In this document: positions 26,656 to 45,378 of the stretch, piece by piece
Position numbering within the stretch: position 1 is the stretch's first letter
Layout of the letters: each line of letters opens with the position of its first letter
NCBI GenBank assembly: GCA_963758525.1
Contig: CAVWVQ010000003.1
Span: forward strand, 160,001-224,000
Direction: 5' to 3'
Length of the DNA stretch: 64,000 nucleotides
Source of the DNA: an uncultured Phycisphaerales bacterium
Lineage (GTDB): Bacteria > Planctomycetota > Phycisphaerae > Tepidisphaerales > Tepidisphaeraceae
Translations under genes and position numbers: made by a program
The notes under the pieces: model-generated
Seen by the model: the letters and a program-made list of their open reading frames with translations, nothing else
Databases searched by the model: none
Told to the model about the DNA's origin: nothing

Positions 26656-28348
26656 ATGAGCACGACCGCTGAAATCAAACCTCTGGGGAAGCAGCTCCTC
26701 GAACGTGGAATCATCCAGTCGAGCCAGTTGGAAGCCGCGCTGCTGGAACAACGCAACAGCGGCTTTGCGCGTCTGCTCGGCGAAATCCTGCTGGAGCAGC
26801 ACGCCTGTTCTGATGAACAAGTCGCACTGGCCGTTGCCGAGTCGCACGGCGTTCCTTTTGCCCACGTCAGCCCGCGGCTGGCCGATCCGCTGGCGGTGGC
26901 ACTGCTGCCCAAGGATTTTCTCGAACATAACGTGATCCTCCCGCTGTTTCTGGTGGAAGGGATGCTGACGGTCGCGATCGCCGAGCCGGCAAACATGTAT
27001 CTTGCCGAGGAAATCGAACGGCGCACCGGATACCGCGTTCAGCTCGTGGCGTCTCCCGCGCGATATTCGCGCCACGCTCGACGCCTACCTCGCGGGCGAA
27101 AAAATGTTCGTGGTCGACGAAGTGCTCGAAGCCGGCGCCGGCGATTTTTCACTGCCGTCGCCCGCGCGCATGCCCCCCGCGGATGATCCGGCGCTGGACG
27201 CGCCCGTCGTGAAGCTGACCAATGCTGTTCTCTTCAACGCGGTCCGCGAAGGGGCGAGCGACGTGCACATCGAGCCGGGTGAAGCAGAGTTGCGCGTGCG
27301 CTATCGCGTGGACGGACGCCTCTTCGAGCGCATGCGTCCGCCCTTTCGGATGCGCGACGCGTTGACCGCCCGCCTCAAGCTGCTGGCCGGACTCGATGTC
27401 GCCCAGCGGCGCCTGCCGCAGGACGGCTCGATTCGCATGACCGCCAACGGCCAATCCGTCGCGCTGCGCATCAGCACCGTGCCAGGCCGGTACGGCGAAA
27501 CCGTCGTCGTTCATCTCTCCGAGGAAGAGCGCGGCACGCTGCGCCTCGAGAAGCTCGGCTTTGCATACGAAACGCTCAAGCAATGGAAGAAACTGATCTC
27601 CCGCCCCAGCGGACTGATCCTCGTCTGCGGCCCCTCCGGCAGCGGCAAGCGCGACACGCTCTGCGCCGCCCTTACCGAGCGCAGCAGCGCCGAGCTGAAT
27701 ATCTGCAGCGTCGAAGAGCCGATCGAGCGCACGCTGCCGGGCGTCAATCAGTTCCCTGTCGACGACCGCAGCGGCTTCACCTTCGCGTCAGCCGTGCGTT
27801 CGCTGCTCCGCCAGGAGCCGGATATTCTGATGATTTCCTGGCTGCGCGACTCCGACACCGCCAAGCTCGCCGCCCAGGCGGCCCTCACCGGCCGGCTCGT
27901 TTTCGCCGCGCTTCATGCGAACGACGCCCCCGCCGCGATCGCGCGGATGACCTATCTGGGAGTCGAGCCCTATGCCATCGGGGCCACGATCGCCGGCGTG
28001 CTCGCCCAGCGCCAAGTCAGAAAGCTCTGTTCTCATTGCAAGGAAATCTGCGAACCGACCGCGGCGCAAAGGCGGCAGATTGAGCCATTCGTCGGCTCCG
28101 TCGAGAAGCTCTTTCGCGCCAAAGGCTGCGACAAGTGCCACAACCTCGGCTACGCCGGCCGGCTCGGCATTCACGAGCTGCTGATCTGTGACGACGCTTT
28201 GTCCGAGCGCATCAGCCAGGGCGCGCCGCTCACCGAGCTGCGCGAATTGGCCGCAAAGACGAACATGAAGCCCCTGCGTGTCGACGGCCTGGAAAAGGTC
28301 AAATCCGGGCTAACGACGCTGGACGAGGTGTATCGGGTAACGGGGTAA
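26656..28348 (+). CDS. GspE/PilB-family protein with MshEN-like N-terminus and degenerate ATPase motifs (frameshift near 27050)
   Basis: PLGKQLLERGII...LEAALLEQ; ASDVHIEP, RYRVDG, RRLPQDG, GPSGSGKRDT, CSHC/CDKC, GYAGRLGIHE. Confidence 0.88.
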
Positions 28349-28359
28349 GGCTAGAGAGA

Positions 28360-28545
28360 GGCACGAAGGCACGAAGGCACAAAGGCACGAAGGGGATGAC
28401 GCTGCGCGACAAGAAGGGGAAGTCTTTATCCTGCGTCCTCTTTGTGCTTTCGTCCCTTCCTCCAGCCTTCGCCTCCGTCCTTCGTGCCTTCCCCGAGCCT
28501 TTCTTCCCCTCCGTGCCTTCGTGCCTACGTGCCTTCGTGCCTTCC
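28360..28545. repeat. Inverted octamer tracts GGCACGAA / TTCGTGCC
   Basis: ggcacgaaggcacgaaggcacaaaggcacgaagg ... ccgtgccttcgtgcctacgtgccttcgtgcctt. Confidence 0.8.
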
Positions 28546-28593
28546 CTGGTACCTTGTCAACTCCGCACGGTTTGCTATCTTCAACAGGACGTT

Positions 28594-28666
28594 GGCAGCG
28601 TAGCTCAGTTGGTAGAGCGCGGGATTCATAAGCCCAAGGTCACAGGTTCGACTCCTGTCGCTGCTA
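28594..28666 (+). tRNA. tRNA with CAT anticodon (elongator Met most likely; Ile2 not excluded)
   Basis: Acceptor GGCAGCG/CGCTGCT, D arm GCTC-AGTTGGTA-GAGC, loop TTCATAA, T arm ACAGG-TTCGACT-CCTGT; CCA not encoded; two mismatches in the anticodon stem. Confidence 0.92.
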
Positions 28667-28722
28667 TTCCGGCAAAGGCCCGACTCCGCGAGATTTCACG
28701 GTGTGGGAACCCAGACGGCATT

Positions 28723-30255: not shown

Positions 30256-31491
30256 ATGTCGGACTCATTCTCGTTTTTGAGTTGTGCCCCTGAAGCTTCC
30301 CGCGCTGAGTGGAGCTTTCTCACCCGATGCATCGCGATGCAGTTGGGAGGCGCGACCACCGCGGCAGCGGTCCCGCCCGACGCGAAGGGTCTGAACTGGA
30401 ATACGATCCTCCGACTGGCCGAGGCGCATCGTGTCGTGCCGCTGCTGTCGGCGGCGGTGCTGGCGAATCAGGCGAAGGGCGTCTCGCCGAAGGCCGCCGC
30501 TGATCTGAAGGGTCGCTTTCGCTACTACTCACAACGCGGAATGTCGTTCGTCATGGAGCTTCGCAATGTGCTGGGTTCGCTCCGCCAGGCAGGAATCCCG
30601 TGCATTCCCCTCAAGGGGCCGGTGCTGACGGTCGGCAGTTATCGGAAGCTGGGGCTTCGTGATTTTGATGACTTGGATCTGCTGGTGGCGCCCGCGGACG
30701 TCACGCGCGCGGTCGCGGCGCTGGCGAACATTGGATATGCGGGCTGGGACATTCCAGCGCAATGGGTCGCGACGCACCTCCGCACCGAATCCGAACACAA
30801 CCTGGTGTGCGACCAGCGGAAGGTCACCGTCGATCTGCATTGGGCCATCGGCCGCAGATACTTCACGATGCCGATGGATTTTGAATCGCTCTGGAACCGC
30901 TCGGCGCACACGAAGCTGATCGGATCGGCGGTGCCGGACCTCTGTGCCGAGGATACGGTTCTCTTCCTCTGCTACCACGGCGGCAAACATCTCTTCTCGC
31001 GGCTGACGTGGGTATGCGATGTCGCGGCCACCATCACGGCTCATCCGAATCTGGACTGGGATGCGCTGCTGGCGATGGCCGCCGGGATGAACGCGCGACG
31101 ATTGCTGCTTCTGGGGCTGCGCCTGGCCCGGGAGATGCTGGGATCTGAACTCCCCGTCCGAATCCGAGCGATGATTGAAGCGGAATCGGCCCTGGAGCCG
31201 CTGGTGGCGATGGTGTTGCGAGGCATCTTCGACGAAACAAATTCCAAGCCCGCGTTGCAGCAACAAATCGAGGCTTCGCTCTTTCATCTGCGAGCCCGCG
31301 AGCGGATGTCCGACCGGCTGCGATATCTGTTTTGGGCCGCCGCCCCAAACGCCCGCGACTGGCGCGACTCGCGTCTCCCGCAGTCGCTCAGCTTTCTGCT
31401 GGTGCTGACCCGACCACTTCGCCTGCTCAGGAAGAATACGTCCCCTGATCACGCCTCCTCCGTTCCCTCCACGATGAGTCTGCCGGGCTAG
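30256..31491 (+). CDS. Nucleotidyltransferase family protein (NTP_transf_5 type)
   Basis: HRVVPLL, IPLKGPVL...LRDFDDLDLLV, VDLHW, LCYHGGKH...LTWVCDV. Confidence 0.88.
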   Translation: MSDSFSFLSCAPEASRAEWSFLTRCIAMQLGGATTAAAVPPDAKGLNWNTILRLAEAHRVVPLLSAAVLANQAKGVSPKAAADLKGRFRYYSQRGMSFVMELRNVLGSLRQAGIPCIPLKGPVLTVGSYRKLGLRDFDDLDLLVAPADVTRAVAALANIGYAGWDIPAQWVATHLRTESEHNLVCDQRKVTVDLHWAIGRRYFTMPMDFESLWNRSAHTKLIGSAVPDLCAEDTVLFLCYHGGKHLFSRLTWVCDVAATITAHPNLDWDALLAMAAGMNARRLLLLGLRLAREMLGSELPVRIRAMIEAESALEPLVAMVLRGIFDETNSKPALQQQIEASLFHLRARERMSDRLRYLFWAAAPNARDWRDSRLPQSLSFLLVLTRPLRLLRKNTSPDHASSVPSTMSLPG

Positions 31492-31502
31492 CTGTATGCG
31501 GG

Positions 31503-32816
31503 TTATGTTGGAATTGATCGCAATCGCTTCTCACCCGCCCTGCGCAATCGAGCGGTCGCAGGGTCGTTGCTGTCCGGCTTTTGCATCCCGGTGGGCTTGC
31601 CAGATGGCACCTCTCGAACCGGGAAATACCGCTTTAATTGCAAGAACCACTTCTCGTAGCAATGGAAGCTGATGAACGCCGCGGCGACGCTGATCAGCGC
31701 TGCTATGCAGGAATAGAGGATGGTTGTCGGCGTAGGACCCAGGTGAGGCAGGCGTGTGCCGATGGATTCATAAATGACTCTATTGAGCAACTGATGGAAC
31801 ACATAGATCCCGTAACTGTATCGGCCGAGAGTGACGAACGGCGACCTCGCAAGCAGGGGCATCACGAAGGATCGTGCATTCATCAGCGCGCCTTCGGCAA
31901 CGAGCCAGCACGAGAACAGCGCCACGAGGGTGCATTCCATCACGGAAGCAACTTTATTCTGAAACAGCACGCCGTGCATGACTCGCTGGCAGACCAGAAA
32001 CATCGCCGCACAGACACCTACAGGACGCAGGATCCTGAGAATCTGACTCGCGGTATATGTTCTGCAGGCGAGGGCCAGCAAAGCTCCAATCGCCAGTTCA
32101 TCGGTTCTGCACGGCGTGAGCAAGCTCGCGGTGTCATGGTGGCTGTGCGGAAGCAACAGATAACGGCTCGTCAGGGCAGTGAGAACCAGCACAAGGGAGA
32201 TACCGACCAAGCCTCTTTTGGATGAAAGATAGATAACGAGCGGCCAGAGGAGGTAAAAGTGTTCCTCCACTGCCAATGACCAGAAGTGCGTGACCATGAA
32301 CGGATAGGGATTTAGAAAACCCCACCCGAACCGGTACACGGCGAGATTGGTTCCGTAGAGCCACAACCACGCCTGGTGCGGCCGGGCCGCTGCAAGCCCC
32401 GCGCGAGCGACCGGCGTGAATGGGAGCACGAGGAATACAACCGAAAGCACGCCATAGTAGATGGGACAGATGCGGAGGGTGCGCCGGACGTAGAAATTTC
32501 GGAAAAAGTGCGGGGATCCCTTTGAATCGAGAAGGATACCGGTGATGAGGAAGCCTGAGAGCACGAAGAACAGATCGACTCCCATCCAGCCATTGCCCGT
32601 GAGTTTGATGTAGATGCGGCCCACTGACGTGAGGGGAAGCGCACTGAGATACCAGTAGCTGAAGTGCATCGTCATGACCGCCAGGACCGCGATCCCCCGA
32701 AGCCCGTCCAATGCGGGCATATAGCGGCCAAATGCCGGAGGGTCATCCTGCGGCGGAATTCGAGATCGAGCCCCGGTGATTGGGGAGACTGCAGATGGAA
32801 TTCCAACCATAGACAA
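31503..32816 (-). CDS. Acyltransferase_3 (OafA-like) membrane O-acyltransferase
   Basis: PALDGLRGIAV, GVDLFFVLSGFLIT, FYVRRTLRI, HFWSLAVEEHFY, GRYSYGIYVFH. Confidence 0.93.
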   Translation of the reverse strand: MSMVGIPSAVSPITGARSRIPPQDDPPAFGRYMPALDGLRGIAVLAVMTMHFSYWYLSALPLTSVGRIYIKLTGNGWMGVDLFFVLSGFLITGILLDSKGSPHFFRNFYVRRTLRICPIYYGVLSVVFLVLPFTPVARAGLAAARPHQAWLWLYGTNLAVYRFGWGFLNPYPFMVTHFWSLAVEEHFYLLWPLVIYLSSKRGLVGISLVLVLTALTSRYLLLPHSHHDTASLLTPCRTDELAIGALLALACRTYTASQILRILRPVGVCAAMFLVCQRVMHGVLFQNKVASVMECTLVALFSCWLVAEGALMNARSFVMPLLARSPFVTLGRYSYGIYVFHQLLNRVIYESIGTRLPHLGPTPTTILYSCIAALISVAAAFISFHCYEKWFLQLKRYFPVREVPSGKPTGMQKPDSNDPATARLRRAGEKRLRSIPT

Positions 32817-33967
32817 TTACTCCCAACGCCCGGCCGCCCGATTGCTGTTCTTTCGCGCAGGAGTATCGGCCGCCGCGGAGCTGGCGATTGAAGCGCGATT
32901 TCGGCCGATCCATAATTGGCGAAACGGATAGATCCACTGCCGCAGGTTTGTTGCCAGCACTCCGCGAACCGAATGAGCCGATTCCGCTGGAAACGTCTCG
33001 TCATCGATTCCGGTTGCCGGATAGACGTCATACTCCCTGCACTGGGTGCCAAACAGACAGTCCCAGACGGTCAGAATCGCGCCATAGTTTTGGTCGAAAT
33101 GCTCCGGGTGCAGGGAGTGGTGAATGCGGTGTGACTGCGGCGTAACAACAAAGTAACAGAGCGGTCCGAAATTGCTCCTGATGTTTGCATGGCAAAGCCG
33201 GTTGTGCCAGGTCAGGATCAATATCCACCAGATGACCGCGGGCTCCTGGAGATTGAGCATCAGCATGGGAAGCACGAGCACGGTGTAGCGGAGGAATTGC
33301 TCCACAATGTGATTTCGGTAAGACGAAAACTGATTCAATTCTCGCTGCGCGTGATGGACGGCATGAAACGGCCAGAGAAAGGAGAGGCGATGGTGAAACC
33401 AGTGCTGCAACCACCGCGCAAAATCCATCGCCACGGCGCCGATCACCAGCCGCAGCGCCACGGGAAGCGAATGAGCCGTCCGCAGAGTGAGAAAGGCCAG
33501 ATGCCGGGAGTAGAAGTTGTAGAGCATCGCGCCGTACCACATGGCGATCACCAGCCAGACCGCGGCTTCGATCACCACCCACAGCGCATCGTGAACCAGG
33601 CCGGTGCTCAGCGTCCGTTGAGAAGGAATTGCAGGAAAGCGGCGTTCCAGCATGAAGATGCCAAGCATGCCGAAGGGGTAGAGCACCATCGATAGCAGTG
33701 ACCAGCCGGAGATCGCTTTCTTGAGGTGCGGCAGCAGGCCGTGCAGAAGCCACCTTGCGCATCGGCGCTGACAAAAGCGAATGGGTAGAGAAGCCTTATG
33801 ATCAGGCAGGCGATCGCCAGCAAGAGGAAGCAGCCTGCGAAAACGATGCGAACGCGTGATTCGGTTGCGGATTCGGAATCCGGATTTGCGCGGACGTAGC
33901 TCGGCCGCCGGGAGCGGGGAAATTGGCGAGACAGAGATGTCGGGCGATTATCCGTCTCCGCGAGCAT
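32817..33967 (-). CDS. Sterol desaturase/fatty-acid hydroxylase family (probable frameshift near 33750)
   Basis: His boxes HWFHH, HAVHH, HANI, HRIHH, NYG; a TM N-terminus lies in the adjacent frame. Confidence 0.8.
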
Positions 33968-34274
33968 GCTCACCGGCCTGTCAGCATGCACTTGGCACGC
34001 GAAGCTAATTCACAGAACGCTGCCCGCATCCCGAGGCATGCCAAGCGACACCGTCATCGATCATTCGTATCGTCCAGCATCGATCCTATGTTGAGCATGA
34101 ATGAGCGGGGACCACCGGTATTATGGGGAGCTAATTCGCCGGTGCTGGTCCAACCTTACGGCTTTTCCGCGGGATAGGGTCTTTTTCTTAATAATCTGTA
34201 CATGGTGCAGTGTTTTGCCGATTGAATCGATGTAACCCGTACGCTCTTTCGGCCACGTTTTGTGCAGGAAATGA

Positions 34275-34721
34275 ATGATGAACGACACGACCAGCCGATT
34301 CAGGATTAACGAAAAGCTCGTGACCTCGAAGATGATCGACGGGGAGGCGATTATCATCAACCTGGCCAATGGGATGTACTACAGCCTGGACAAAACCGGC
34401 GGCGTGGTATGGGTGCTGATTGGCGCGGGTCAGAGCCTGGGCGAAATCGCGAACGTGGTGTCTTCACGCTTTTCCGCACCACCGGAGCAGGTTCGCGAGG
34501 ATCTGGCCCTGCTGGTGAACGATCTGGTGAAGCAAAATCTGGTGCTGCCCGCCGAGGGCGACGCGCCGATCGTGCAGGTCAAGCTCGATCCGCCCACGGG
34601 CGATGCTTACGTGCAACCCGTGCTCAATAGTTACGACGACATGGGGGATGTGCTCGCGCTGGATCCGCCGCTGCCGCAGGTGGAAATCGAAAACGAATCC
34701 TGGGAGACCAGCGTCAAATGA
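34275..34721 (+). CDS. PqqD-family RiPP recognition element (RRE) with C-terminal leader-like extension
   Basis: IDGEAIIINLANGMYYSLDKTGGVVW...EQVREDL..LVNDLVKQNLV; tail YVQPVLNSYDDMGDVLALDPP. Confidence 0.88.
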   Translation: MMNDTTSRFRINEKLVTSKMIDGEAIIINLANGMYYSLDKTGGVVWVLIGAGQSLGEIANVVSSRFSAPPEQVREDLALLVNDLVKQNLVLPAEGDAPIVQVKLDPPTGDAYVQPVLNSYDDMGDVLALDPPLPQVEIENESWETSVK

Positions 34722-34736
34722 GGGGCGCGAGCAGAC

Positions 34737-36496
34737 ATGGAGCAAGCCGATCCGCTCATTTCGTGTCTGTGCGTCACGCGTGCGCGCGTGGCCTTGCTCC
34801 GTCGCGCCGTTCAATGTTTTTTTGAGCAAACCCATCGCCATCGCGAGCTGCTGATTCTCTTCGATTCCGATGATGCCGCCACGCGCCAGTACGTTGGCTC
34901 GCTCGACGACGATCGCATCCGCGGCATCGAGGTGCCGGACTCTCCGCGACAATCGCTGGGATCGCTGCGAAATCTTGCCGTCGGCGAGGCGCGCGGGCAA
35001 TACGTCTGCCAGTGGGACGACGACGACTGGTATCACCCTGATCGACTGACGGTGCAATTATCGGCGTTGCGCGGCAGCGGCCGCTGTGCATGCGTCCTTT
35101 CCCGCTGGACCTGCGTCGACACTGAGGCGCATCGCGCCTACATCTCCCCCCACCGCGCCTGGGAGGGAAGCATTCTGGCCGAGCGCGATCGAATGGCGGC
35201 CTACCCGGATCTGGCCCGCGGCGAGGACACGGTGGCAATCGAGACGCTGTCCCGTCAGCAACAACTGCACATGCTCGACCGGCCGGAACTTTACGTTTAC
35301 ACATTCCACGGCCGCAACACCTGGGATCGCAGCCATTGGGCTTATCTGCTTGGAAAATCGACGGTCGTTCCGTGGGATGAGTCGCAGGACATCCTGCGCC
35401 GCACGGGCTCCGATGCGATGGGTCCCAACGCGCTTCCGATGCGGGAGCACCTTGCACCCACGCGTTATTGGTTCGACCAGGCTTGCGAGCGCGGCCGCGA
35501 GCCGGCGCTGACCACATACTTCCGCTTCGCTGACGCGCCGGTCCGGATGCGTGTCGCGGGTAACGCGCTCAATGCTCACCTGAAGCGGAGCTACGAGCAG
35601 TTGCTGGCAGACGATGTCGACCCCGACGGCCCTTTCGCTTTGACGATAGACGCGTGGGACCGGGCCACGACCGGCTTGGGATGTCCCGGCGTCCCGATGC
35701 CGCCGGACCAGACGCAACTCCTCGATGAAGGATTGCTCAACTCATACGACGACGGACGCATCATCCGCTACGAACGAGGGCATTACGTCAACGCAATCGA
35801 CCGGATGGCGCCAAGATTTTCACCTGGCGGGCCGACGGAAACGATCAGGCGCTCTATGAACGGGCCAAGCCATTCCCCAACATGCTGGAGATCTGGTATC
35901 GCGATCAGGGCGTCCAGCAGTTGCATGCGGGCCTGGTGGCGCGCGACGGCAAGGGGGTGCTTTTTATCGGACAGAGCGGATCGGGAAAATCGACCTGCAC
36001 GCTCGCTTGCGCGCTGGACGGCTTCGACTACCTTGGCGACGACCACAACGGGCTGCAGATGACTCAGGACGGGCGTTGCATCGGACACAGCTACTACAAC
36101 GCCGCGCGAATCGGGCCCGGGCACCTGCGGCATTTCCCGGAACTGCGTCCGCACGAAGTGCCTCCGCACAACCAGTACGATCAGAAATCGCTGGTCTGGA
36201 TGACGCAGGTGACCGGCCGCGTCGCAAAAAAGTGCGACATCGTCGCGGTCGTCATGCCGCGGATCGTCGTCGGAGGCACGACGCGATTTCGCCGGGCATC
36301 CAAGGTGCAGACGCTGATTGCGCTCGCTCCCAGCACGCTTAAAGTGCCGATGGGCGCGGGGCTGGGCGGCTTCATGAACCTCACCGACTTCATCCCGAAG
36401 ATCCCCTGCTTTCTGCTCGAATGCGGCCCCGACGTGCGTCAGATTCCCGATTGCGTGCGGCGGATGATTGATGCGGCCGCGGGGAGCGGAGGGTAA
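34737..36496 (+). CDS. GT2 glycosyltransferase fused to an HPr-kinase-like P-loop domain (frameshift near 35808)
   Basis: PLISCLCVT...CQWDDDDWYHPDRL; after the shift YERAKPF...LHAGLV...GQSGSGKST...YLGDD. Confidence 0.8.
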
Positions 36497-37629
36497 TGCG
36501 CATCCTCTATTGGACAGAGTCATTCTGGCCGAGGATCGGCGGAAGTGAAGTGGCGGCGGCGGCGCTGATCGGCGAAATGCGGTGCCGGGGCCATCAATTC
36601 GAGGTGGTGACACGGCAGTGGTCGCCGGATCAACCGGCAACCGATCGATGGAACGGTATTGCCGTGCATCGCGTGCCATTCGATGACGGCACGTTTGACC
36701 GGCTCAACCTGGAAGAGATCCTCCCGCTGCGTCAGCGCGTGGCTGCGATCAAGCGACGATTCAAACCTGATCTGGTTCACGTCGGCCTCACAGGACCGAG
36801 CCTGTTCCTGCATAATTTCACCGCGGGGCAGTTTCCCGCGCCCACGCTCATCACCCTGCATGTCGTGCCTGTGGAAACCGAATACGGCCGGAACAAGCCG
36901 GTACGCGAGGCGCTTCGCGCCGCAGCCTGGCTGGCGCCGGTTTCAAACGCCGTGGCAGCGCGGATACAGCATCGGTTACCGGCCCTGGCGGAACGCTGCT
37001 CGGTGATCCATAACGGATTGCCCGAGCCGACGGCGGCGCTCCTGCCCGTCCCCTTTTCACCGCCAAGACTGCTCTGTGTTGGTCGCGTCACCGAACAGAA
37101 GGGCTTCGACACCGCCGTCGCGGCGATGCCTTTCGTACGCGAGATGTTTCCAGACGCGGAGTTGTTGATTGCAGGGGATGGCGATGCGACTGAATCGCTC
37201 CGGGAATTAGCGTGCACGTTGAATGTCTCCGATTGCGTGAAACAACTGGGGTGGACGCCGTCAGACCAGGTGCCGGGGCTGATCGACGCAGCGACGCTGG
37301 TGTTGATGCCTTCGCGATGGGAGCCGTTCGGATTGGTGGCGCTGCAGGCAGGTCAGCGAGGCCGCGCGTGCGTGGCGGCGGATGTCGATGGTTTGCCCGA
37401 GATCGTGCAGCACGAACGGACGGGGCTGCTGCTTCCCCCGGATCAACCGCGACAATGGGCCGACGCCATCTGCTTACTGCTCACCGACCGGCAACGCATC
37501 ATGATGATGGGCCGCGAGGCGCGGCGGTTTGTTTCGCGGCAATTCAGCCTTGCGAAGCACGTGGACGCGTACGAATCGCTCTATCAGCGCCTGGCCGCCC
37601 GCGCCTGCAGGGAAGAGGCGATGGCATGA
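36496..37629 (+). CDS. GT4 glycosyltransferase
   Basis: FWPRIGGSE, VIHNG, VGRVTEQKGF, PSRWEPFGLVALQA, GLPEIV. Confidence 0.93.
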   Translation: MRILYWTESFWPRIGGSEVAAAALIGEMRCRGHQFEVVTRQWSPDQPATDRWNGIAVHRVPFDDGTFDRLNLEEILPLRQRVAAIKRRFKPDLVHVGLTGPSLFLHNFTAGQFPAPTLITLHVVPVETEYGRNKPVREALRAAAWLAPVSNAVAARIQHRLPALAERCSVIHNGLPEPTAALLPVPFSPPRLLCVGRVTEQKGFDTAVAAMPFVREMFPDAELLIAGDGDATESLRELACTLNVSDCVKQLGWTPSDQVPGLIDAATLVLMPSRWEPFGLVALQAGQRGRACVAADVDGLPEIVQHERTGLLLPPDQPRQWADAICLLLTDRQRIMMMGREARRFVSRQFSLAKHVDAYESLYQRLAARACREEAMA

Positions 37630-38336
37630 GCAGGCCAACCGTCAGTTGCATTCTCGCCGTTTACAACGGCCGCCAATACTTGGCCGAGGCGCTGGACTCG
37701 ATCCGGCGTCAGTCGCGGCCGGTGGATGAGATCATTGTCGTGGACGACGGATCGACCGATGACACGGTCGAGATCGCCGAGAGATTCGGTGCGCCTCTCC
37801 GCTGCATCCGCCAGCAGAACGCCGGCCAGTCCGCGGCCCGCAATCATGGTGTCCGCGTCTCGCGCGGCGACATGCTGTCATTTCTCGACTGCGACGACCT
37901 CATTCATCCCAAAAAGATCGAGCGCCAACTGCGGCGCTTTGATGAGGCTCCGCAACTGGCGCTGATCGACGCCTACGCGCAGAACTTCTGGAGCCCAGAA
38001 GTTCCCCAGGAGCAGCGGCAATTGACCGGCTGGCAAGCCATGACCCATTCCGACCAACCGTGGCCGGAGTTCATCGCAACCTGGCTCTTCCGGCGCGAAG
38101 CATGGCAGTGCGCGGGACAGTTCGACGAGAACCGCCGATTTGCCGAGGACAGCGACTGGCATGACCGCGTGCGCTTCAGCGGCATGCCGATGGAGACGAT
38201 GCGGGCGGTGCTCGCCCGGCGCCGGCTGCATCAGACGAATCTCACTCGCAGCAACTACGTCGACCACATCGACGGCCTGCAACGTTTTTACAAGGAGAAA
38301 ATCGACCGCCTGCGCGCTCAGGAACGCGCCGGTTGA
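37626..38336 (+). CDS. GT2 glycosyltransferase
   Basis: VSCILAVYNG, VVDDGSTD, AARNHG, FLDCDD. Confidence 0.92.
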   Translation: MSRPTVSCILAVYNGRQYLAEALDSIRRQSRPVDEIIVVDDGSTDDTVEIAERFGAPLRCIRQQNAGQSAARNHGVRVSRGDMLSFLDCDDLIHPKKIERQLRRFDEAPQLALIDAYAQNFWSPEVPQEQRQLTGWQAMTHSDQPWPEFIATWLFRREAWQCAGQFDENRRFAEDSDWHDRVRFSGMPMETMRAVLARRRLHQTNLTRSNYVDHIDGLQRFYKEKIDRLRAQERAG

Positions 38337-38344
38337 TTTACGTC

Positions 38345-39034
38345 ATGACGTCACCCGGCATCAGCTTGATCATCCCGGCATACAACGCGAGCCGCTATCT
38401 GCGCGAAGCGATCGACTCCGCGCTGAGCCAGACGATCAAGCCGAGGCAGTTGATCGTTGTGGACGACGGGTCGACCGACGACACGCTGCAGATCGCCCGA
38501 AGTTACGGCGATATCCTCACGGCCATCACACAGCCCAATGGCGAAGGCTCGGCAGCGCGCAATCGCGGCCTGACGGAAGCGGACCAGCCATTGATCGCGT
38601 TCCTGGACGCGGATGATCGATATGCACCCAATAAACTCGAGCGGCAACTGCAGTCCCTCTCTGACCACCCGGGCGCGATGCTCTGCATCTGCCGAGCCTG
38701 CGACTTCTGGTCGCCAGACCTTCCCGCTGCCGTTCGCAAGGCCTCAAACTTCGAGCCGCAGTTCAGGCCGGGCCAGCCGGGCACCTGGCTGGCGCGACGA
38801 GAAGTCTTCGAGTGCGCCGGGAGGTTCAACACCTCGCCAGCATTTAATTTCAGCGAAGGATCGGAGCTGTATTCACGCATCGAGAACGCCAGACTCGCAG
38901 TGGTGCGAATTGACGATGTGCTGGTCGAACGACGGCTGCATTCCTCGAACAAGACCGCGAATTCCAAAGCGCATCTTGATGGAATCATGTCGTTGATGAA
39001 GCGGCGGCTGGAATTGCGGAGGGGATCGGCATGA
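38345..39034 (+). CDS. GT2 glycosyltransferase
   Basis: ISLIIPAYN, VVDDGSTD, AARNRG, FLDADD. Confidence 0.92.
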   Translation: MTSPGISLIIPAYNASRYLREAIDSALSQTIKPRQLIVVDDGSTDDTLQIARSYGDILTAITQPNGEGSAARNRGLTEADQPLIAFLDADDRYAPNKLERQLQSLSDHPGAMLCICRACDFWSPDLPAAVRKASNFEPQFRPGQPGTWLARREVFECAGRFNTSPAFNFSEGSELYSRIENARLAVVRIDDVLVERRLHSSNKTANSKAHLDGIMSLMKRRLELRRGSA

Positions 39035-39186
39035 GCCAGTACGAAGTGCGGGATCCAGCGGCTCACGGTGGCGAACGGCCAATCTTGCTCCCTCCCGCGG
39101 AGAGGGGACCGGAGGGAAATCGCCCGCCGGTAAATTGTGCCCCTGGGACAGCGAATGAACTACCTGCGCGGAGTAGGCGGGTTTGC

Positions 39187-39879
39187 ATGATGACCACACC
39201 AGGCATCAGCCTGATTATCCCCGTTTTCAATGCGAGTCTTTATCTGCGCGAAGCCATCGACTCGGTGTTGAGCCAGACCCGCAAGGCGCAACAGATCATC
39301 GTCGTGGACGACGGATCGACCGACGACAGCCGCGAGATTGCCCTGGGGTACGGCAGCGCGATCACGCTCATCTCGCAGGCGAACGGCGGCACTGCCGCGG
39401 CGCGCAATCGCGGCCTGGAAGAGGCAAACCAGCCGTTGATCGGGTTCCTCGACAACGACGACCGATTCACGCCCCAAAAGCTCGAGCGACAACTGCACGC
39501 GCTTCTGGAAAATGACGGCGCGATGCTATGCGTCTGCCGGGTGCGTGCCTTCTGGTCGCCCGAGGTGCCCGGGAGCGCCCGAAGAGCCGTTGATCTAACC
39601 CCGCAATTTCGTCCGGGGCAGCCCGGCGCGTGGCTGGCGCGGCGCGAACTGTTCGAGCGCGTTGGCGGCTTCAGCGATGAGCCGCAGTGTTATTACATCG
39701 AAGGCTCGGAATTGTTCGTGCGTATCGAGCACGCGGGATGCGCGGTGGCGCGAATCGATGACGCGCTGCTCGAGAGACGGCTCAGCCTGTCGAACAAAAC
39801 AGCCAACTCCAAAGCGCACCTCGACGGGATTATGACCCTTATGCAGCGGCGGCTGCATTTACGGCGGTGTTCCACATGA
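39187..39879 (+). CDS. GT2 glycosyltransferase (paralog of 38345-39034)
   Basis: ISLIIPVFN, FLDNDD; shares PQFRPGQPG and NKTANSKAHLDGIM with the upstream gene. Confidence 0.92.
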   Translation: MMTTPGISLIIPVFNASLYLREAIDSVLSQTRKAQQIIVVDDGSTDDSREIALGYGSAITLISQANGGTAAARNRGLEEANQPLIGFLDNDDRFTPQKLERQLHALLENDGAMLCVCRVRAFWSPEVPGSARRAVDLTPQFRPGQPGAWLARRELFERVGGFSDEPQCYYIEGSELFVRIEHAGCAVARIDDALLERRLSLSNKTANSKAHLDGIMTLMQRRLHLRRCST

Positions 39880-40592
39880 GCCAGTACGATCTCCCACTCG
39901 TGAGTTGCATCATCGCCGTGTACAACGGCCAAGCGTATTTGCGCGAAGCGATCGAATCACTGCTCGCCCAGGAATATCCGCTGTTGGAGATCGTGGTGGT
40001 CGATGACGGCTCGACCGACGGCACGGCCGGCGTAATCAGCGCGTATCGCGGTCGCGTCCACGCGATCAGCCAGACCAATTGCGGCGTATCCGTCGCCCGC
40101 AATCGCGGGGTGGAGATGTCATCGGGCCGACTGCTTTGCTTTTTGGACGCCGACGATCTGCTGGATCCGCGGAAGATTGCGGCGCAGGTGGCCGCGTTCG
40201 GCACCGATGAACGCCTCGATTTTTGCGACTGCCATACTTCGTACTTCTGGAGTCCGGAGATTTCGGCCGAGGCGCTCGAGCGGGATCCTCGCCATGCCCA
40301 GCCATTCTGGCACACGCCCCTGCCGCGTCACATCAGCACCTGGTTGTTTCGTTGCGAGCTATGGGATCGCGTCGGCACGTTTGCTGCCAGACTCCGCTAC
40401 GCCGAGGACGTGGACTGGTTCAGCCGGGCTCGCGATCTTCCCATGCGCAGCCTGACACTCCCCGATGTGCTGACACATCGGCGACTCCATACGGGCAACG
40501 TGACCGCGCAATGCCGCGACCGGCAGGTCGACGACCTCGCGAGCACACTCCGGGCGCACATGGTCCGCGCGCGAACAAGGAACGCGGGCTGA
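39876..40592 (+). CDS. GT2 glycosyltransferase
   Basis: LVSCIIAVYNG, VVDDGSTD, FLDADD, AEDVDW, RRLHTGN. Confidence 0.92.
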   Translation: MSQYDLPLVSCIIAVYNGQAYLREAIESLLAQEYPLLEIVVVDDGSTDGTAGVISAYRGRVHAISQTNCGVSVARNRGVEMSSGRLLCFLDADDLLDPRKIAAQVAAFGTDERLDFCDCHTSYFWSPEISAEALERDPRHAQPFWHTPLPRHISTWLFRCELWDRVGTFAARLRYAEDVDWFSRARDLPMRSLTLPDVLTHRRLHTGNVTAQCRDRQVDDLASTLRAHMVRARTRNAG

Positions 40593-42104
40593 TGCAACAC
40601 CAGTTGCCCATCTCCGCCTGCGATCCGCCGCTGGCCGATACCCTTCGGCTGATGATGCCATGCGCAACCACCACGCTGCTGCTGCAAGCGGCACTGCTTC
40701 AAAGCGGCGCGGCCGGCGAAGCGTGGTTGAAATGGAGGCAAACCATCGCAGATCCCAAGGCATTTCTCGCATCCGATCGCGTCGGCATCAAACGTCACTT
40801 GCCTTTGTTGTACCGCAACCTGACCGCGCACCAGGTGGACGTCGGCCGCGACCTTGAACCGTACTTCCGCGCGGCCCGCGCTCGTGAGGAGCTTCGCAGC
40901 GCGCGGTATCGCCGATTCCTCGGCGAAGCACTCGGCGCGCTGCAACGCAGCGGCGTTGAGTTTGTCGTGGGCAAGGGCGTGACCGTCGGCGAAACGATCC
41001 ACGCAGATCCGGTTGTGCGGCACAGCCACGACATCGATCTGCTGGTGCGACCTGGGGACCTGGCCACCGCGGCCGAGGCGTTGCAGAAAGCGCGATTCCC
41101 CTCGTCTGCGACACACAGCCCGCGCGGCGAGCCGCGATTCGTCCACGAATCGGGCTTGCCCGTGGAACTGCACCATCGGTTGTACCGCACGCCCTTCTAT
41201 GACGGCGACCTGACGGGCGTCTGGGACCGGGCACGCGCCGGCGAAGCCCTCGGCATGCCAGTGCGGCTGATCAGCGACGTCGACCTGCTCGTGCAAGCGC
41301 CGGTGCATGCGTCGGTCGTGCCGCAACGCTGCGGACTCAGTTGGATTGTCGATGTCGCAAGTCTTCTGCAACGACGCGATGCCGAAGGAACAGCGATTGA
41401 CTGGGCGTCGGTCATCTGGATCGCGGGCGAAGCGGGCGCGACGCTGCCGCTGTACGTGACGTATCATTATCTTGCGACCACATTCAAGGCCCCGATTCCC
41501 CGGCAGGTCATCGAAGAACTGGGCCGCTCGGCGCAGGGCAGGACCGCTGCAGCATCTGGCGGCCTTGGACGGCCTGCGCTGCGAAGCCCGATATCGGCGG
41601 ATCAAAGTGCTGCTCGACGCCAGCGGATGGCGCTCGCGCGCGGCGATCGCCAGAGCGATGCTGCTGCCGCCGCCGGCATATCTCAGGGCAACGCATCCGG
41701 GGATACGCCGGTTACCGCTGGCGCGAATTTATATCACACGACCGCTGCAGTTTGCCGGCAGGCAATTCAACCGATTCAAGTTCCGATTGCGGCAACGATG
41801 GCTGGGTCTGACGCAAACGCCGTTGGCACCTGTTGCGATAGCAGCAGCCGTCGCGTGCAACCGCGAATCATGGAAGCAGCTTCTTGCCTCCTCCCCTGGT
41901 ACTCCGGGGGAGGATCGAGGTGGGGGCCCTGTAAGTGCAACCGTGCCGCTATTACGCCCGGCCCCCACCCCAACCCTCCCCCGGAGTACCAGGGGAGGGG
42001 GCAAGAGCGCGTCAACTCAGGAGACCGGTGACATTCGAGCCGGTTCTGCGCGTAGTCCGGCGGCTTCGGCTCCACCCTCAATTGCACGGGAGTCCCTCGT
42101 ATGA
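40592..42104 (+). CDS. Nucleotidyltransferase family protein (NTP_transf_5 type; frameshift near 41535; REP in 3' end)
   Basis: LPLLYRNL, VGKG...RHSHDIDLLV, VELHHRL, SWIVDV. Confidence 0.8.
41883..42006. repeat. REP doublet (CCTCCCC-GGTAC-GGGGAGG family)
   Basis: Inverted arms resembling 8270-8385. Confidence 0.8.
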
Positions 42105-44103
42105 TCGGACGCATTCGCTCCAGCCGCGCCCGCTACCGCGAGTACTGCCGCCAAATGCGGCAGACGCGATACGACCCGGCGGCGCGGCGAATACTGCCGA
42201 AGGACGTTGCCGCGCACGATGCGCAGACCGGCCAAAGTCGTCACCGGCGAAGCACGCGCGAATTGATCGGCGCCTTCTGGCGTCAACTGCGCGCGCATCG
42301 CCTCGTGCTGTGGAATGTCCTTCTTACCTCGGGCATCGCGACCCTGGTGGGTTTGCTGCCGCCTTATGGGATGAAGGTCATCTTCGACAATGTCTTCACG
42401 GGCAAGCCACTGCCGAAGGCGATCGCATCATTGCGCTGGATGCCCTCCACGCCGTCGGGACTGCTCTGGACCGTGGTGATGGCGATGTTCGCGCTGTCGG
42501 TCCTCTCGGTGGTGACCAGGACGATCAGCAATTCCATCGCCTATCGGCTGCAACAGCACCTGATTCTGCGGGCGCAGCGGCGCCTCCTGCATCACACGCT
42601 GCGAATGCCGTTGCATCGGCTGCGTCAGATCACGTCCGGCGGTATGTCTTTCATCGTGCGTCACGATGCCAATGCGGTGGGCGATCTGGTGGTCTTCCTC
42701 GTGTACGAACCGTGGAAAGCGATCATTCAATTGCTGGGCTGCTTCGCGGTCCTCGCCTGGGTGGACTGGCGGCTGCTTGCCGGGTCGCTGGCGCTGCTGC
42801 CGCTCCTGTACATGGCACAGCGGACGCGCGTCGGGCGGATTCGCGACATGGCGGAGGATGCGTTGTCCCACGACCAGCAGCTTGACGGTCAAACCGCCGA
42901 ACTCTTCGGCGGCATCCGCGTCATCCGCGGCTTCGGCCGTGAATCCACCGTCGCGGCGCGGATGCTCCGCCGGCACCACTTCGTCTCGCGCCTGCAGTTG
43001 CTGTCCTGGTGGCTGTTCCGGAGCGTGGATGTCGGCTGGATGATTCTGATTCCGCTGGCGTCGGCCGTCCTCCTGGCGGTGGGCGGAGCACGCGTGCTTC
43101 ACGATGCGGCGGAAGTCGCCGCCGGGCGCCGGCGCCGGCGCATGCCTTTTCCGTCGGCAGCCTGGTCATGTTCATGGCGTATCTGGCATGGCTGCTCAAT
43201 CCGCTGGCGGCGCTGGCGCGCACCAGCACACACCTGCAGAACGCCCTGGCGGGTATGAACCGTGCATTAGACGTGTTGGAAGAGCCCGTCGAGGCCGCGA
43301 CGCAAGGCGCGATTTGCAATCTGCGGCCGTCGGGGGATGGAGCCGTCTCGCTGAGCGATGTGTGGTTCACCTATCCCGGCAGCGACGAACCCGTGCTGCG
43401 CGGCATCGATCTCGACGTGCCCGCCGGCCAGACTGTTGCGCTGGTCGGCCCCAGCGGCGCCGGAAAGTCCACGCTCACCAATCTCATCGCTCGCTTCTAC
43501 GACCCCGACCAGGGAACCGTCCGACTGGACGGCGCCGATGTGCGTCTGATCGACGTGAGGTTCTGCCGCAAAATGATGGCGCTCGTCGATCAGGACATCT
43601 TCCTCTTCGACGGCACGATCGGCGAGAATATCGCGTGCGGCAACCGCCGCGCGTCGGCCCGCGAGATCGTCGAGGCGGCCAAGGGCGCTCACGCCCACGA
43701 GTTCATCACGGAATTGCCCGAGGGTTACAACACTTCCGTGGGCGAGCGCGGCCTGCGCTTCTCCGGCGGACAACGCCAGCGCATCGCGATCGCGCGAGCA
43801 ATGCTCGCCGATCCAAAGATTCTCATTCTCGACGAGGCCACCAGCCATCTCGATCCGGAAAACGAGCGTCTCATCCAACAATCCCTTGCGTCGCTCATGG
43901 CCGGCCGCACATGCTTCGTCATCGCCCATCGTCTCAGCACGATCCGTCACGCCGACCAGATCGTGGTCCTCGAGGAGGGCCGAATCACCGAGCGCGGCCG
44001 GCACGAAGAATTGATGCTCAGCAGCAGCCGATACCGGCGGATGATTCAGCTGCAACTGGGCGTCGAGGAGTCGGCGTCGCAGCCGGAAGAAGCCGTGGTT
44101 TAG
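42101..44103 (+). CDS. ABC exporter, fused TMD-NBD (frameshift near 43130)
   Basis: TM helices followed by GPSGAGKST, FSGGQRQRIAIARA, ILDEATS, IAHRLST; no C39 peptidase domain seen. Confidence 0.9.
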
Positions 44104-44138: not shown

Positions 44139-44534
44139 TCAACGCGAGACCTCAGGGTCCTCCGCCAATCCCTGCTCAACTAACATCCTCTTGAATTCCT
44201 TCGGCGTGCGAATGGAATCCATCGCACCCTTCCGAATTCGTTCGAGCAGATCGCCTGATACAGGTTCAAACATTTTCCGCAAACCCGCTTTCACCATCGC
44301 ATCGAGTTCGGCGTTCGACGCCTTCGCATTGCCACGGGAATAGGTGATACACGTGCGATTCGTAACCGTCGAGTGGGCTCCCGGCAGAAGCACGCAGGTG
44401 TGGTCCTCGCGTGCGTCCCAACTTGTCATGCCCACGAAAAGCACCTTATCGGGGTGCTGGTCTGGGTTGGAGATGATCACTTTCGCGTGTCGGTCCGCGG
44501 CTTTGACAAGCCGGAACACATCCCCTTGTTTCAC
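44139..44534 (-). CDS. Putative toxin, possibly PemK/MazF-like fold
   Basis: MKQGDVF...RHAKVIIS...VGMTS pattern; overlaps the Panacea gene by 4 nt. Confidence 0.55.
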   Translation of the reverse strand: MKQGDVFRLVKAADRHAKVIISNPDQHPDKVLFVGMTSWDAREDHTCVLLPGAHSTVTNRTCITYSRGNAKASNAELDAMVKAGLRKMFEPVSGDLLERIRKGAMDSIRTPKEFKRMLVEQGLAEDPEVSR

Positions 44535-45097
44535 GCGTCCCTCACGGCGCCCAGAGCATCTTCAAAAGCCGCCTCCGCCTGCTCGTCGGCAATAAGACGT
44601 TCTTCGTAATCCGTCATTCCGAGAGCCTCCAGCACATCATGGAGTGGTATGTCCTTCTTGCTTCCCTCCGGTGGCTGATTCTTGCTCCATTCGGGGAACT
44701 TGTGAGTCTCGTCGGCAATATCGTAATCGGTCATGCCCCGTCGCATTGCACTCACGGCTCGCAATTTCCTGATCTCGTACTCGGAGAGGGTGTCATCACC
44801 CGGTTGGCCGACCAACATATGACTGCGTTCGCCATCCTGAGCGATGTATTTGTCCCAGATGGCATTTCCGGGCTGCGATTCACGTCTGATCAGTTTATAG
44901 GTTTTTGACAAAACGGGGCCGTGATCCATCGCTACGACATCATCGCCGGTGATCGGCTGAAGAGTTTCCGCAATGCTCTCGCGATCAGCGATGTAGAGCA
45001 GCTTCAGCAACCGCAATCTGGTCATTTTCCCACCCTCCTGTTGCAAGAGGGTGGATGCCGCCTGTACGGCCTTGAGCGTGTTGAATGAAATGACCAT
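44531..45097 (-). CDS. Panacea (DUF4065/SocA-like) antitoxin
   Basis: LLKLLYIADR...PITGD...MDHGPV, ETH..PEW. Confidence 0.85.
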   Translation of the reverse strand: MVISFNTLKAVQAASTLLQQEGGKMTRLRLLKLLYIADRESIAETLQPITGDDVVAMDHGPVLSKTYKLIRRESQPGNAIWDKYIAQDGERSHMLVGQPGDDTLSEYEIRKLRAVSAMRRGMTDYDIADETHKFPEWSKNQPPEGSKKDIPLHDVLEALGMTDYEERLIADEQAEAAFEDALGAVRDA

Positions 45098-45378
45098 CGC
45101 CGAACCACCTGCTGCGTTATGCGTTAATTCGATATTGTATGTCGTGCGTCCCATTCGACAAACTCGGCGGCTTGGCCGAGCAGGGCTTCTGCGACATAGA
45201 CATTCATATCGAAGAATATCTTCATCGATCGCGAGGCCTTGCTACCGTCTGATCAATGCTTCGTGGTGGATTCCCGCATGGCGCGCGATCTCCCAAGCCG
45301 GACTCGATCTCCGTGATGATGTTGCCAACCGTCGCCTGGCTCATAGGTTACAAATGATAGACAAGACTTCGGCGAATC

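Follow-up and report, generated by a model that had tools for sequence, protein, structure and literature searches.

The window analysed here is a stretch of 64,000 nucleotides from an uncultured Phycisphaerales bacterium (GenBank assembly GCA_963758525.1, contig CAVWVQ010000003.1, positions 160,001 to 224,000 of the forward strand). Between its positions 30256 and 44103 it carries a gene cassette centred on a protein with a RiPP recognition element (RRE; RiPP, peptide synthesized ribosomally and modified post-translationally), which had been predicted from the sequence to be a RiPP-like system that combines lasso-type accessory genes with glycosyltransferases and has neither a lasso cyclase nor a B2 protease. 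All genes named in this original prediction were found by Pfam and profile scans at or near their predicted places. The cassette is real and widespread, is apparently undescribed, and appears to be a variant of the tailoring systems of lasso descent, unusual in that its RRE is predicted to load itself: the RRE protein carries a fused leader-like tail of 55 residues that the original prediction had overlooked.

The central gene (34275..34721, plus strand) encodes a PqqD/RRE protein of 148 amino acids, the single tailed RRE copy in its genome. Its RRE domain matches PF05402 over residues 24-90 (47 bits) and ends near residue 92, its nearest solved relative is the lasso RRE TbiB1 (E 1e-16), it scores 44 against NF033536, below the cut-off of 80, and an ESM Atlas search retrieved PqqD-family clusters only. 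Downstream on the same strand follow a fusion of a family 2 glycosyltransferase (GT2) with an HPrK-like kinase (34737..36496, 586 amino acids in relatives) that carries the full kinase motif (H, GxxGxGK[ST], DD; here H..GxxGxGKS..DD), a family 4 glycosyltransferase (GT4) of the cassette's own family (36496..37629), four short soluble GT2 proteins (37626..38336, 38333..39034, 39031..39879 and 39876..40592, the third being a recent paralog of the second with a likely start near 39190), an NTP_transf_5 nucleotidyltransferase (NTase, PF14907) of a cassette-specific clade termed A with an R-H-x-H-D-x-D signature (40589..41800, end approximate), and an MsbA-like ATP-binding cassette (ABC) exporter without a peptidase domain (42101..44103). 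The tightly coupled operon predicted at 34275-44103 was confirmed as a plus-strand run, but the tight coupling does not extend to the exporter: about 300 bp, including a 47-bp inverted repeat with 91% complementarity (41882..42006), lie between the second NTase and the ABC gene, so that coupling is loose there.

A further plus-strand NTase gene (30256..31491, PF14907 with 193 bits, general group B) lies upstream and, judging from the gene order of close relatives, probably belongs to the cassette, its counterpart standing directly 5' of the RRE gene in three loci (L110, L112 and L113). The two genes between this NTase and the RRE gene in the window, an acyltransferase-3 (Acyl_transf_3) membrane protein (31503..32816) and an FA_hydroxylase/sterol desaturase family protein (32817..33689), had been predicted just upstream of the operon and are indeed there, but on the minus strand and as lineage-specific extras; since the first NTase adjoins the RRE gene in the three loci, they are read as insertions, each shared with a single close relative (a close acyltransferase ortholog only in L111 and a hydroxylase ortholog only in L114). 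Being sporadic, both were rejected as core members and are regarded as optional accessory genes.

A species-genome scan yielded 114 confirmed matches, the best 80 of which made up 78 loci under 14 phylum labels (Gemmatimonadota 29, Pseudomonadota 15, six loci unlabelled). These loci were found by an ALDPP pattern, so that ALDPP is conserved among them by construction and the profile set used below is the fairer sample; sampling began from the RRE, and cassette copies without an RRE were not sought. A deep profile search returned 261 clusters (50% identity) at E <= 1e-30. Among the 45 long-flank loci (at least 7 kb upstream and at least 5 kb downstream), GT2 genes occur in 45, NTP_transf_5 genes in 43, kinase genes in 40, GT4 genes in 34 and ABC genes belonging to the clustered family in 14. 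For the five conserved families of the cassette, distances co-vary throughout (rho 0.39-0.69), values that shared ancestry also gives. On the count of 14 out of 45 the ABC exporter, which the original prediction had listed as part of the operon, was rejected as a core member. The copy in the window has an ortholog only in the same-genus genome G052, and it takes the place of the Wzx-like flippases (3 loci) and Wzm-like permeases (4 loci) that, together with major facilitator superfamily (MFS) carriers (4 loci), are found among the 78 loci. Nine out of 40 relatives of the host have any match and two have a full-length copy, a patchiness that fits horizontal spread of the cassette. Two of the sources used, the locus L014 (genome G003) and the relative G054, carry an unpublished flag. 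L014 contributes a single row to the counts of 78, 50 and 45 and is among the three loci with a flippase, G054 is among the short matches, and no conclusion depends on either by itself.

The cassette kinases form a clade of 79 rows (support 95; rows of alignment A5, chosen by motif) apart from eight kinases of lasso and other loci, and the short GT2 proteins form one of 142 rows (support 95) apart from the other GT2s of the genome. Clade A of the NTases comprises 62 of 126 rows (support 100), holds the second NTase of the window and is separate from the lasso-locus NTases; the first NTase groups with a mixed set that includes lasso-locus enzymes. Within clade A (alignment A3), Arg151-His152 is invariant, His154 and His193 are near-invariant and the DxD is retained by some three quarters of the rows, a residue pattern that suggests a chemistry unlike that of other PF14907 enzymes, and a PDB sequence search with the clade returned nothing below E 0.6. 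The predicted GT2-kinase fusion is real, with single open reading frames (ORFs) of 586 amino acids in L112, L113 and L114 and of 582 amino acids in L013 and L034, but it is not general: fusions of this type were found only in the closest clade of the window and in two Burkholderiales loci, the kinase being elsewhere mostly a stand-alone protein of about 360 amino acids. A sister cassette lies on plasmid pCRI9333.04 of Crinalium epipsammum PCC 9333 (NC_019735.1, L137:5896-17248) and contains genes for a tailed RRE, an NTase, an HPr kinase, an FkbM methyltransferase, two GT2s, an epimerase-like oxidoreductase, a TPR protein, a second NTase and an ABC, with a group II intron adjoining. Its RRE tail ends in L-L-L-D-P-I-H-E-V-D, and its cultured host makes this copy testable.

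The fused tail of the RRE protein

The RRE protein has its length of 148 amino acids in common with its homologs (119 hits), and its 55-residue tail is as conserved as the domain itself. Residues 112-134 (34608..34676, plus strand) read YxxPxLxxY followed by a near-invariant D-M-x-D-L-L-A-L-D-P-P in the alignment, giving the consensus Y-x-x-P-x-L-x-x-Y-x-D-M-x-D-L-L-A-L-D-P-P, which is that of a lasso-type leader. The tail stands in register with 11 lasso leaders taken from true lasso loci of the same host genomes, with a mean score of 2.98 compared with -9.1 +/- 2.9 for column permutations (1 of 5000), calculated for 20 of the 76 distinct tails over 11 positions that were unused in picking the leaders. 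Two lasso leader residues, Gly(-8) and Thr(-2), are not kept, the latter being replaced by Leu or Phe, and the tail runs 6-37 residues beyond the virtual cleavage site. In the true lasso loci of the same host genomes the RREs are tail-less (most ORFs 88-115 amino acids) and separate precursors adjoin them.

In the AlphaFold model of the RRE protein, residues 101-120 have predicted local distance difference test (pLDDT) values of 88-96 and include a strand at 118-120, and the values then drop to 64, 52 and 45 over residues 121-148. By mean-field covariation (340 sequences) the pair D76-Y112 ranks fourth among the long-range pairs, and the top 22 also hold M34-D121, D39-N118, L79-Q114 and Q87-S119. 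Of the 19 sequences that lack Tyr112, 11 have lost Asp76 as well, compared with 10 of the 307 that have Tyr112 (kinship ignored). The D76-Y112 coupling matches an Asp-Tyr hydrogen bond described for the crystal structure of LppB with its leader (PMC13381572). Taken together, the model and the covariation predict that the first half of the tail (residues 112-121) fills the RRE's own leader cleft in cis and that the invariant second half is exposed.

At position +2 after the virtual cleavage site the tail has an Asp (Asp130) that 323 of 327 sequences conserve. It follows the leader Tyr at a distance of 18 residues, equal to that of the phosphorylated Ser in LppA. The tail core reads Leu-Asp-Pro at +1 to +3, is invariant for six residues and is then variable or absent. 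Counts of tails refer to the top 150 profile hits, of which 138 matched the tail pattern and 134 have terminal tails. None of the 134 has a Ser or Thr at +1 to +4, and a C-terminal Ser occurs in 12 of them and in 5 of the 78 loci (the tail in the window ends in Lys), so that Ser phosphorylation of the paeninodin/pseudomycoidin type, to which the original prediction had appealed, is not transferable to the cassette. Three other acceptors were considered: the C-terminal Ser was rejected on its count of 12 in 134, Tyr120 was rejected because 31 of 138 tails have Phe or His in its place, and Ser37 was discounted because its position on the leader-binding strand makes a structural role likely.

The deep profile search contained three natural fusions of three RREs with a kinase ((RRE)3-kinase, 781-789 amino acids; P0187, P0226 and P0250), one of them a cluster with eight members. 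The kinase of these fusions is homologous to that of the cassette (27% over 363 amino acids), and the full tail belongs to repeat 1, with some 640 residues between it and the C-terminus. Tandem proteins with two or three RREs (P0120-P0124, P0128, P0129 and P0146) carry the cleft-filling strand on each of their repeats, and the DxxxLLxxDP segment occurs once per chain in tandem proteins and fusions alike, internally in the kinase fusions. The internal position of the tail argues against a released peptide and ties the RRE to the kinase. As a separate observation, the region L028:2721-11191 contains three tailed RRE copies with identical tails among GT2 and GT4 genes.

Relation to lasso peptide clusters and similar systems

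As predicted, the window contains neither a lasso cyclase nor a B2. The host assembly (90.9% complete) has no B2 according to PF13471 and a locally built B2 profile, and its six Asn_synthase matches are either on a different contig or separated from the cassette by 1.3 Mb or more. Among the 78 loci a B2 is found once (L048), within a separate kinase-short RRE-B2-NTase cassette, and Asn_synthase domains are found in two (L024 and L032), the two full-length ones carrying a GATase domain and being of the AsnB type. A separate precursor with a YxxPxL...G.....T leader was found in none of the 78 loci nor in the window; a looser pattern did detect precursors in true lasso loci, and between 27 and 48 kb of the window the RRE tail is the sole YxxPxL-type stretch of a real gene with a leader-like continuation. 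The comparison of the 78 homologous loci bears out a conserved system that is built from lasso-type parts and free of cyclase and B2.

Searches for B2, PqqD and cyclase at the genome level covered the host genomes of 50 of the 78 loci (in one case, 150 of 220 matches). PF13471 matches somewhere in 22 of the 50 genomes, and most of the strong matches adjoin a short, tail-less RRE of their own, in many cases together with separate precursors; the fetched loci contain none of them, and the closest approach to a tailed RRE is 12.5 kb. One contig carries both a tailed-RRE cassette and, at a distance of 12.5 kb, a lasso-type cluster with two cyclase-like genes (L090, G013:C48:24000-38000). Two further lasso-type loci, L091:6780-7617 (G033) and L092:1671-1998 (G021), have four and two tandem precursor ORFs, those of L091 with short, Asp-rich cores. 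Kinase and NTase cassettes for which no B2 was reported are found with two tail-less RREs and GT4-like genes in L104 (G029:C10) and with three tandem PqqD-domain ORFs in L109 (G048:C3).

Linear polyphosphorylated peptide (LPP) clusters of the Bacillota (lppA-K-B-S-D-N; PMC13381572, 2026), the closest known family, share with the cassette the absence of a cyclase, a lasso-type RRE in which an Asp holds a YxxP leader, an HprK-like kinase, an uncharacterised NTP transferase, an MsbA-like exporter and surroundings rich in glycosyltransferases. They differ by an archaeal-type SpI peptidase, a separate precursor and a Ser at core position +3, none of which is found in the cassette, and their precursor leader (YxxPxVLxHQxIxFETxxS) differs from the tail motif. 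Unlike in the LPP clusters, the leader in the cassette is fused to the RRE, dedicated GT2 and GT4 clades belong to the core, and none of the 72 labelled loci is assigned to the Bacillota. Paeninodin and pseudomycoidin clusters (PadeK/PsmK and PsmN; PMC8498205, PMC11912497) likewise combine an RRE, an HPrK-like kinase, a nucleotidyltransferase and an ABC, and the pseudomycoidin set is a precedent for a sugar on a peptide-linked phosphate, which PsmN is thought to add; in contrast to them the cassette has no cyclase, B2, precursor or conserved C-terminal Ser. The likeness to PsmN is at the level of the family, PF14907, to which both NTases of the window belong. The bsf lasso cluster of Bradymonas (PMC10368454) resembles the cassette in its YxxPxL leader, a residue other than Thr at -2 and the kinase motif H-G-G-G-K-S-D-D, but BsfK phosphorylates Ser3 of a separate precursor where the tail core of the cassette reads Leu-Asp-Pro.

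The uncharacterised pairs of PqqD-like proteins and HprK-like kinases in NCBIfam (HPr-rel-A, HprK-related kinase B and SynChlorMet; TIGR04352/04353, TIGR04355 and TIGR04248/04249) are similar in composition, but the cassette kinases are far below the cut-offs (24-40 bits for three full-length kinases, compared with 125-200) and the RRE of the window has no TIGR04353 match. Of the features that make up a lasso cluster the cassette has a discrete B1-type RRE and lacks the cyclase, the B2 and the separate precursor. Judged by its sequences, it would work like the tailoring arm of the LPP and pseudomycoidin clusters while being a member of neither. Further literature (PMC7470986; bioRxiv 2023.03.08.531785) was consulted, and no description of the cassette was found in the literature searched, which included few subscription journals; Fig. 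S7 of RRE-Finder, which lists RRE-glycosyltransferase clusters, and the daptide RRE tables might list it.

Possible function of the cassette

The explanation that we favour, if tentatively, is that the self-loaded RRE serves repeatedly as a platform for the kinase, the clade A NTase and the glycosyltransferases, and that the product they build there is no released peptide but a phosphate-linked glycan. Direct computational support covers the self-loading, and we infer the later steps. The RRE carries a fused lasso-type leader, no separate precursor having been found, and residues 112-121 of this leader are predicted to occupy the cleft in cis; the exposed DMxDLLALDPP segment would then be a docking or acceptor arm with the kinase as its first partner. 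The kinase is proposed as partner because its gene is directly downstream of the RRE gene in 41 of the 78 loci (GT2 in 20, NTase in 9) and because the RRE protein BsfB1 stimulates the kinase BsfK (PMC10368454). By analogy with PsmK/PsmN, BsfK and LppK, the kinase would make a phosphate primer on Asp130 or on an adjacent held acceptor, and the clade A NTase would put the first sugar on this primer. The GT4 and one to five GT2s would lengthen the chain, variable tailoring genes would decorate it, and the product would be moved out by the exporter that the lineage in question happens to have acquired. A glycan is the expected output because the variable neighbours are of the glycan type (sulfotransferases, epimerases, WbqC, GT10 and pyruvyltransferase), yet a transferase that would initiate a glycan on a lipid carrier is missing: tblastn queries for PF02397 and PF00953, which detect the copies in the host's own genome, gave no hits in the 78 loci, the window and L137. 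The Pfam scans of neighbours covered 38 cluster representatives and most of the 247 representatives within 6.5 kb, leaving out those longer than 800 amino acids and a few others.

Several observations weigh against such a platform. The catalytic DxD is kept in about three quarters of the clade A rows (25 and 24 of 33), the kinase is missing from the fetched stretch in 5 of the 45 long-flank loci, and in an AlphaFold model of the kinase fusion, built on a shallow and unpaired alignment, the invariant segment is undocked (pLDDT 44-59, predicted template modelling score 0.56). The genome of the host has two PF02397 and four PF00953 genes, from which an initiating transferase could come. An acyl phosphate is, moreover, a labile species. 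The characterised kinases of this kind act on Ser or Thr and not on Asp: LppK (PMC13381572) and BsfK (PMC10368454) phosphorylate Ser3 of the core, and the paeninodin-type kinase phosphorylates a C-terminal Ser (PMC8498205). Among the NTases, LppN was inactive in a heterologous host (PMC13381572), and for PsmN no in vitro activity is on record (PMC11912497).

Alternatively, the tail could be a substrate, consisting of a leader and a core that are modified in cis, with the glycosylated tail, clipped off by a housekeeping protease, or the whole small protein as the product, which we consider unlikely. A fused precursor of this kind would account for a tail that is in register with lasso leaders and continues past the virtual cleavage site, for the offset that Asp130 shares with the phosphorylated Ser of LppA, and for the MsbA-like exporter in the window. 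However, no peptidase family travels with the cassette among the 254 neighbour proteins scanned, which include no S24/S26 signal peptidase, and S26 pieces from the host genome, a weak query, gave no tblastn hits. The replacement of Thr(-2), the lack of Ser and Thr at +1 to +4 and a core that is variable or absent after its six invariant residues also speak against a fused precursor, as do the internal tails of the kinase fusions and the presence of an ABC in only 14 of 45 loci.

A similarly doubtful explanation is that the tail is a placeholder that keeps the RRE folded and is displaced by substrates encoded elsewhere, in which case the cassette would phospho-glycosylate proteins in trans. The insolubility of LppB without its leader (PMC13381572) is consistent with a placeholder, the kinase keeps a full Ser-kinase motif, and Asp130 could mimic a phospho-Ser. 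No conserved substrate gene was found beside the cassette, however; in the host's own genome the tail profile matched the RRE tail alone (next best E 0.71) and the lasso-leader pattern matched no short ORF, and a tethered leader that co-evolves with its cleft would be hard to displace.

Carried further, the favoured platform could be a glycan carrier protein that does the work of undecaprenyl phosphate, in which Asp130 is phosphorylated and loaded with a sugar, the chain is extended and handed off, and the carrier is recycled. We regard this as rather unlikely, although it would explain the missing initiating transferase, peptidase and precursor, and if true would add a third route by which bacteria initiate a glycan, one that evolved from lasso-peptide parts. 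LysW/AmCP and the acyl carrier proteins are small reusable proteins in which a flexible arm bears an invariant carboxylate and which are sometimes fused to, or repeated beside, their enzyme; we take them to be a possible working analogy for the RRE, their fold and their enzymes being unrelated.

It is improbable that the cassette is an ordinary pathway for side chains of a surface glycan, acting on a lipid-linked or polymeric glycan with the RRE as a dispensable relic. The glycan-type accessory genes and the Wzm-like, Wzx-like and MFS exporters in 4, 3 and 4 loci agree with such a pathway, and LPP and paeninodin clusters are likewise located within capsule loci (PMC13381572), but a relic would hardly be fused to kinases or, together with its tail, so strongly conserved over 14 phylum labels (Asp130 in 323 of 327 sequences), in a sample that began from the RRE. 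Very improbable, and already largely refuted, is a decayed lasso peptide cluster that has lost its cyclase, B2 and precursor: lasso B1 proteins are the closest relatives of the RRE among solved structures and profiles, the assembly has frameshifts in three genes and PF13471 is matched in 22 of the 50 host genomes, but relatives do not share the frameshifts, strong B2 matches are mostly beside other, tail-less RREs at a distance of 12.5 kb or more, and the cyclase-free form, with B2 in 1 and Asn_synthase in 2 of 78 loci and no separate precursor, is the normal state of the family.

New classes of ribosomal peptides are found chiefly through RRE domains, and a self-loading RRE whose leader is kept in enzyme fusions would be RiPP machinery on another job, most likely glycan assembly. 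The cassette is also a compact handle on what the PF14907 enzymes (PsmN, LppN and BsfN) do and on why kinase and NTase sets of the lasso type occur in capsule loci.

Frame switches and flanking sequence

Three genes of the cassette are not single open frames, with frame switches near 35810 in the GT2-kinase gene, near 41535-41644 in the second NTase gene and near 43100-43130 in the ABC gene. These are likely assembly indels, since close relatives read through each of the sites (586-residue fusions in L112, L113 and L114, the NTase in L113 and an ABC of 664 amino acids in L135). In a near-identical soil contig, the only one of its kind and with a depth of 3.3, one more base follows 43130; coverage from the sequencing run consisted of scattered pieces and did not reach the breaks at 35810 and 41540. 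The host assembly is 6.1% contaminated. Elsewhere in the window, MshEN and T2SSE ATPase pieces of a gene pair unrelated to the cassette lie in different frames (26656-28348) and a glycogen phosphorylase gene (47774-50218) ends before the end of its profile, which suggests that the assembly is prone to indels.

Promoter and terminator scans were at the level of chance (2 compared with 3.7 and 14 compared with 11.6), and with a GC content of 0.58-0.65 the cassette is not distinct from its surroundings. A second intergenic inverted repeat (28359-28542, 41 nt, 90%) contains short tandem units, and both repeats look like repetitive extragenic palindromic (REP) sequences. The cassette is flanked upstream by a tRNA-Met(CAT) gene (28593-28667) and downstream by genes for a SocA/Panacea-type antitoxin and a 131-residue neighbour (44139-45154), flanks that may mark an acquired island.

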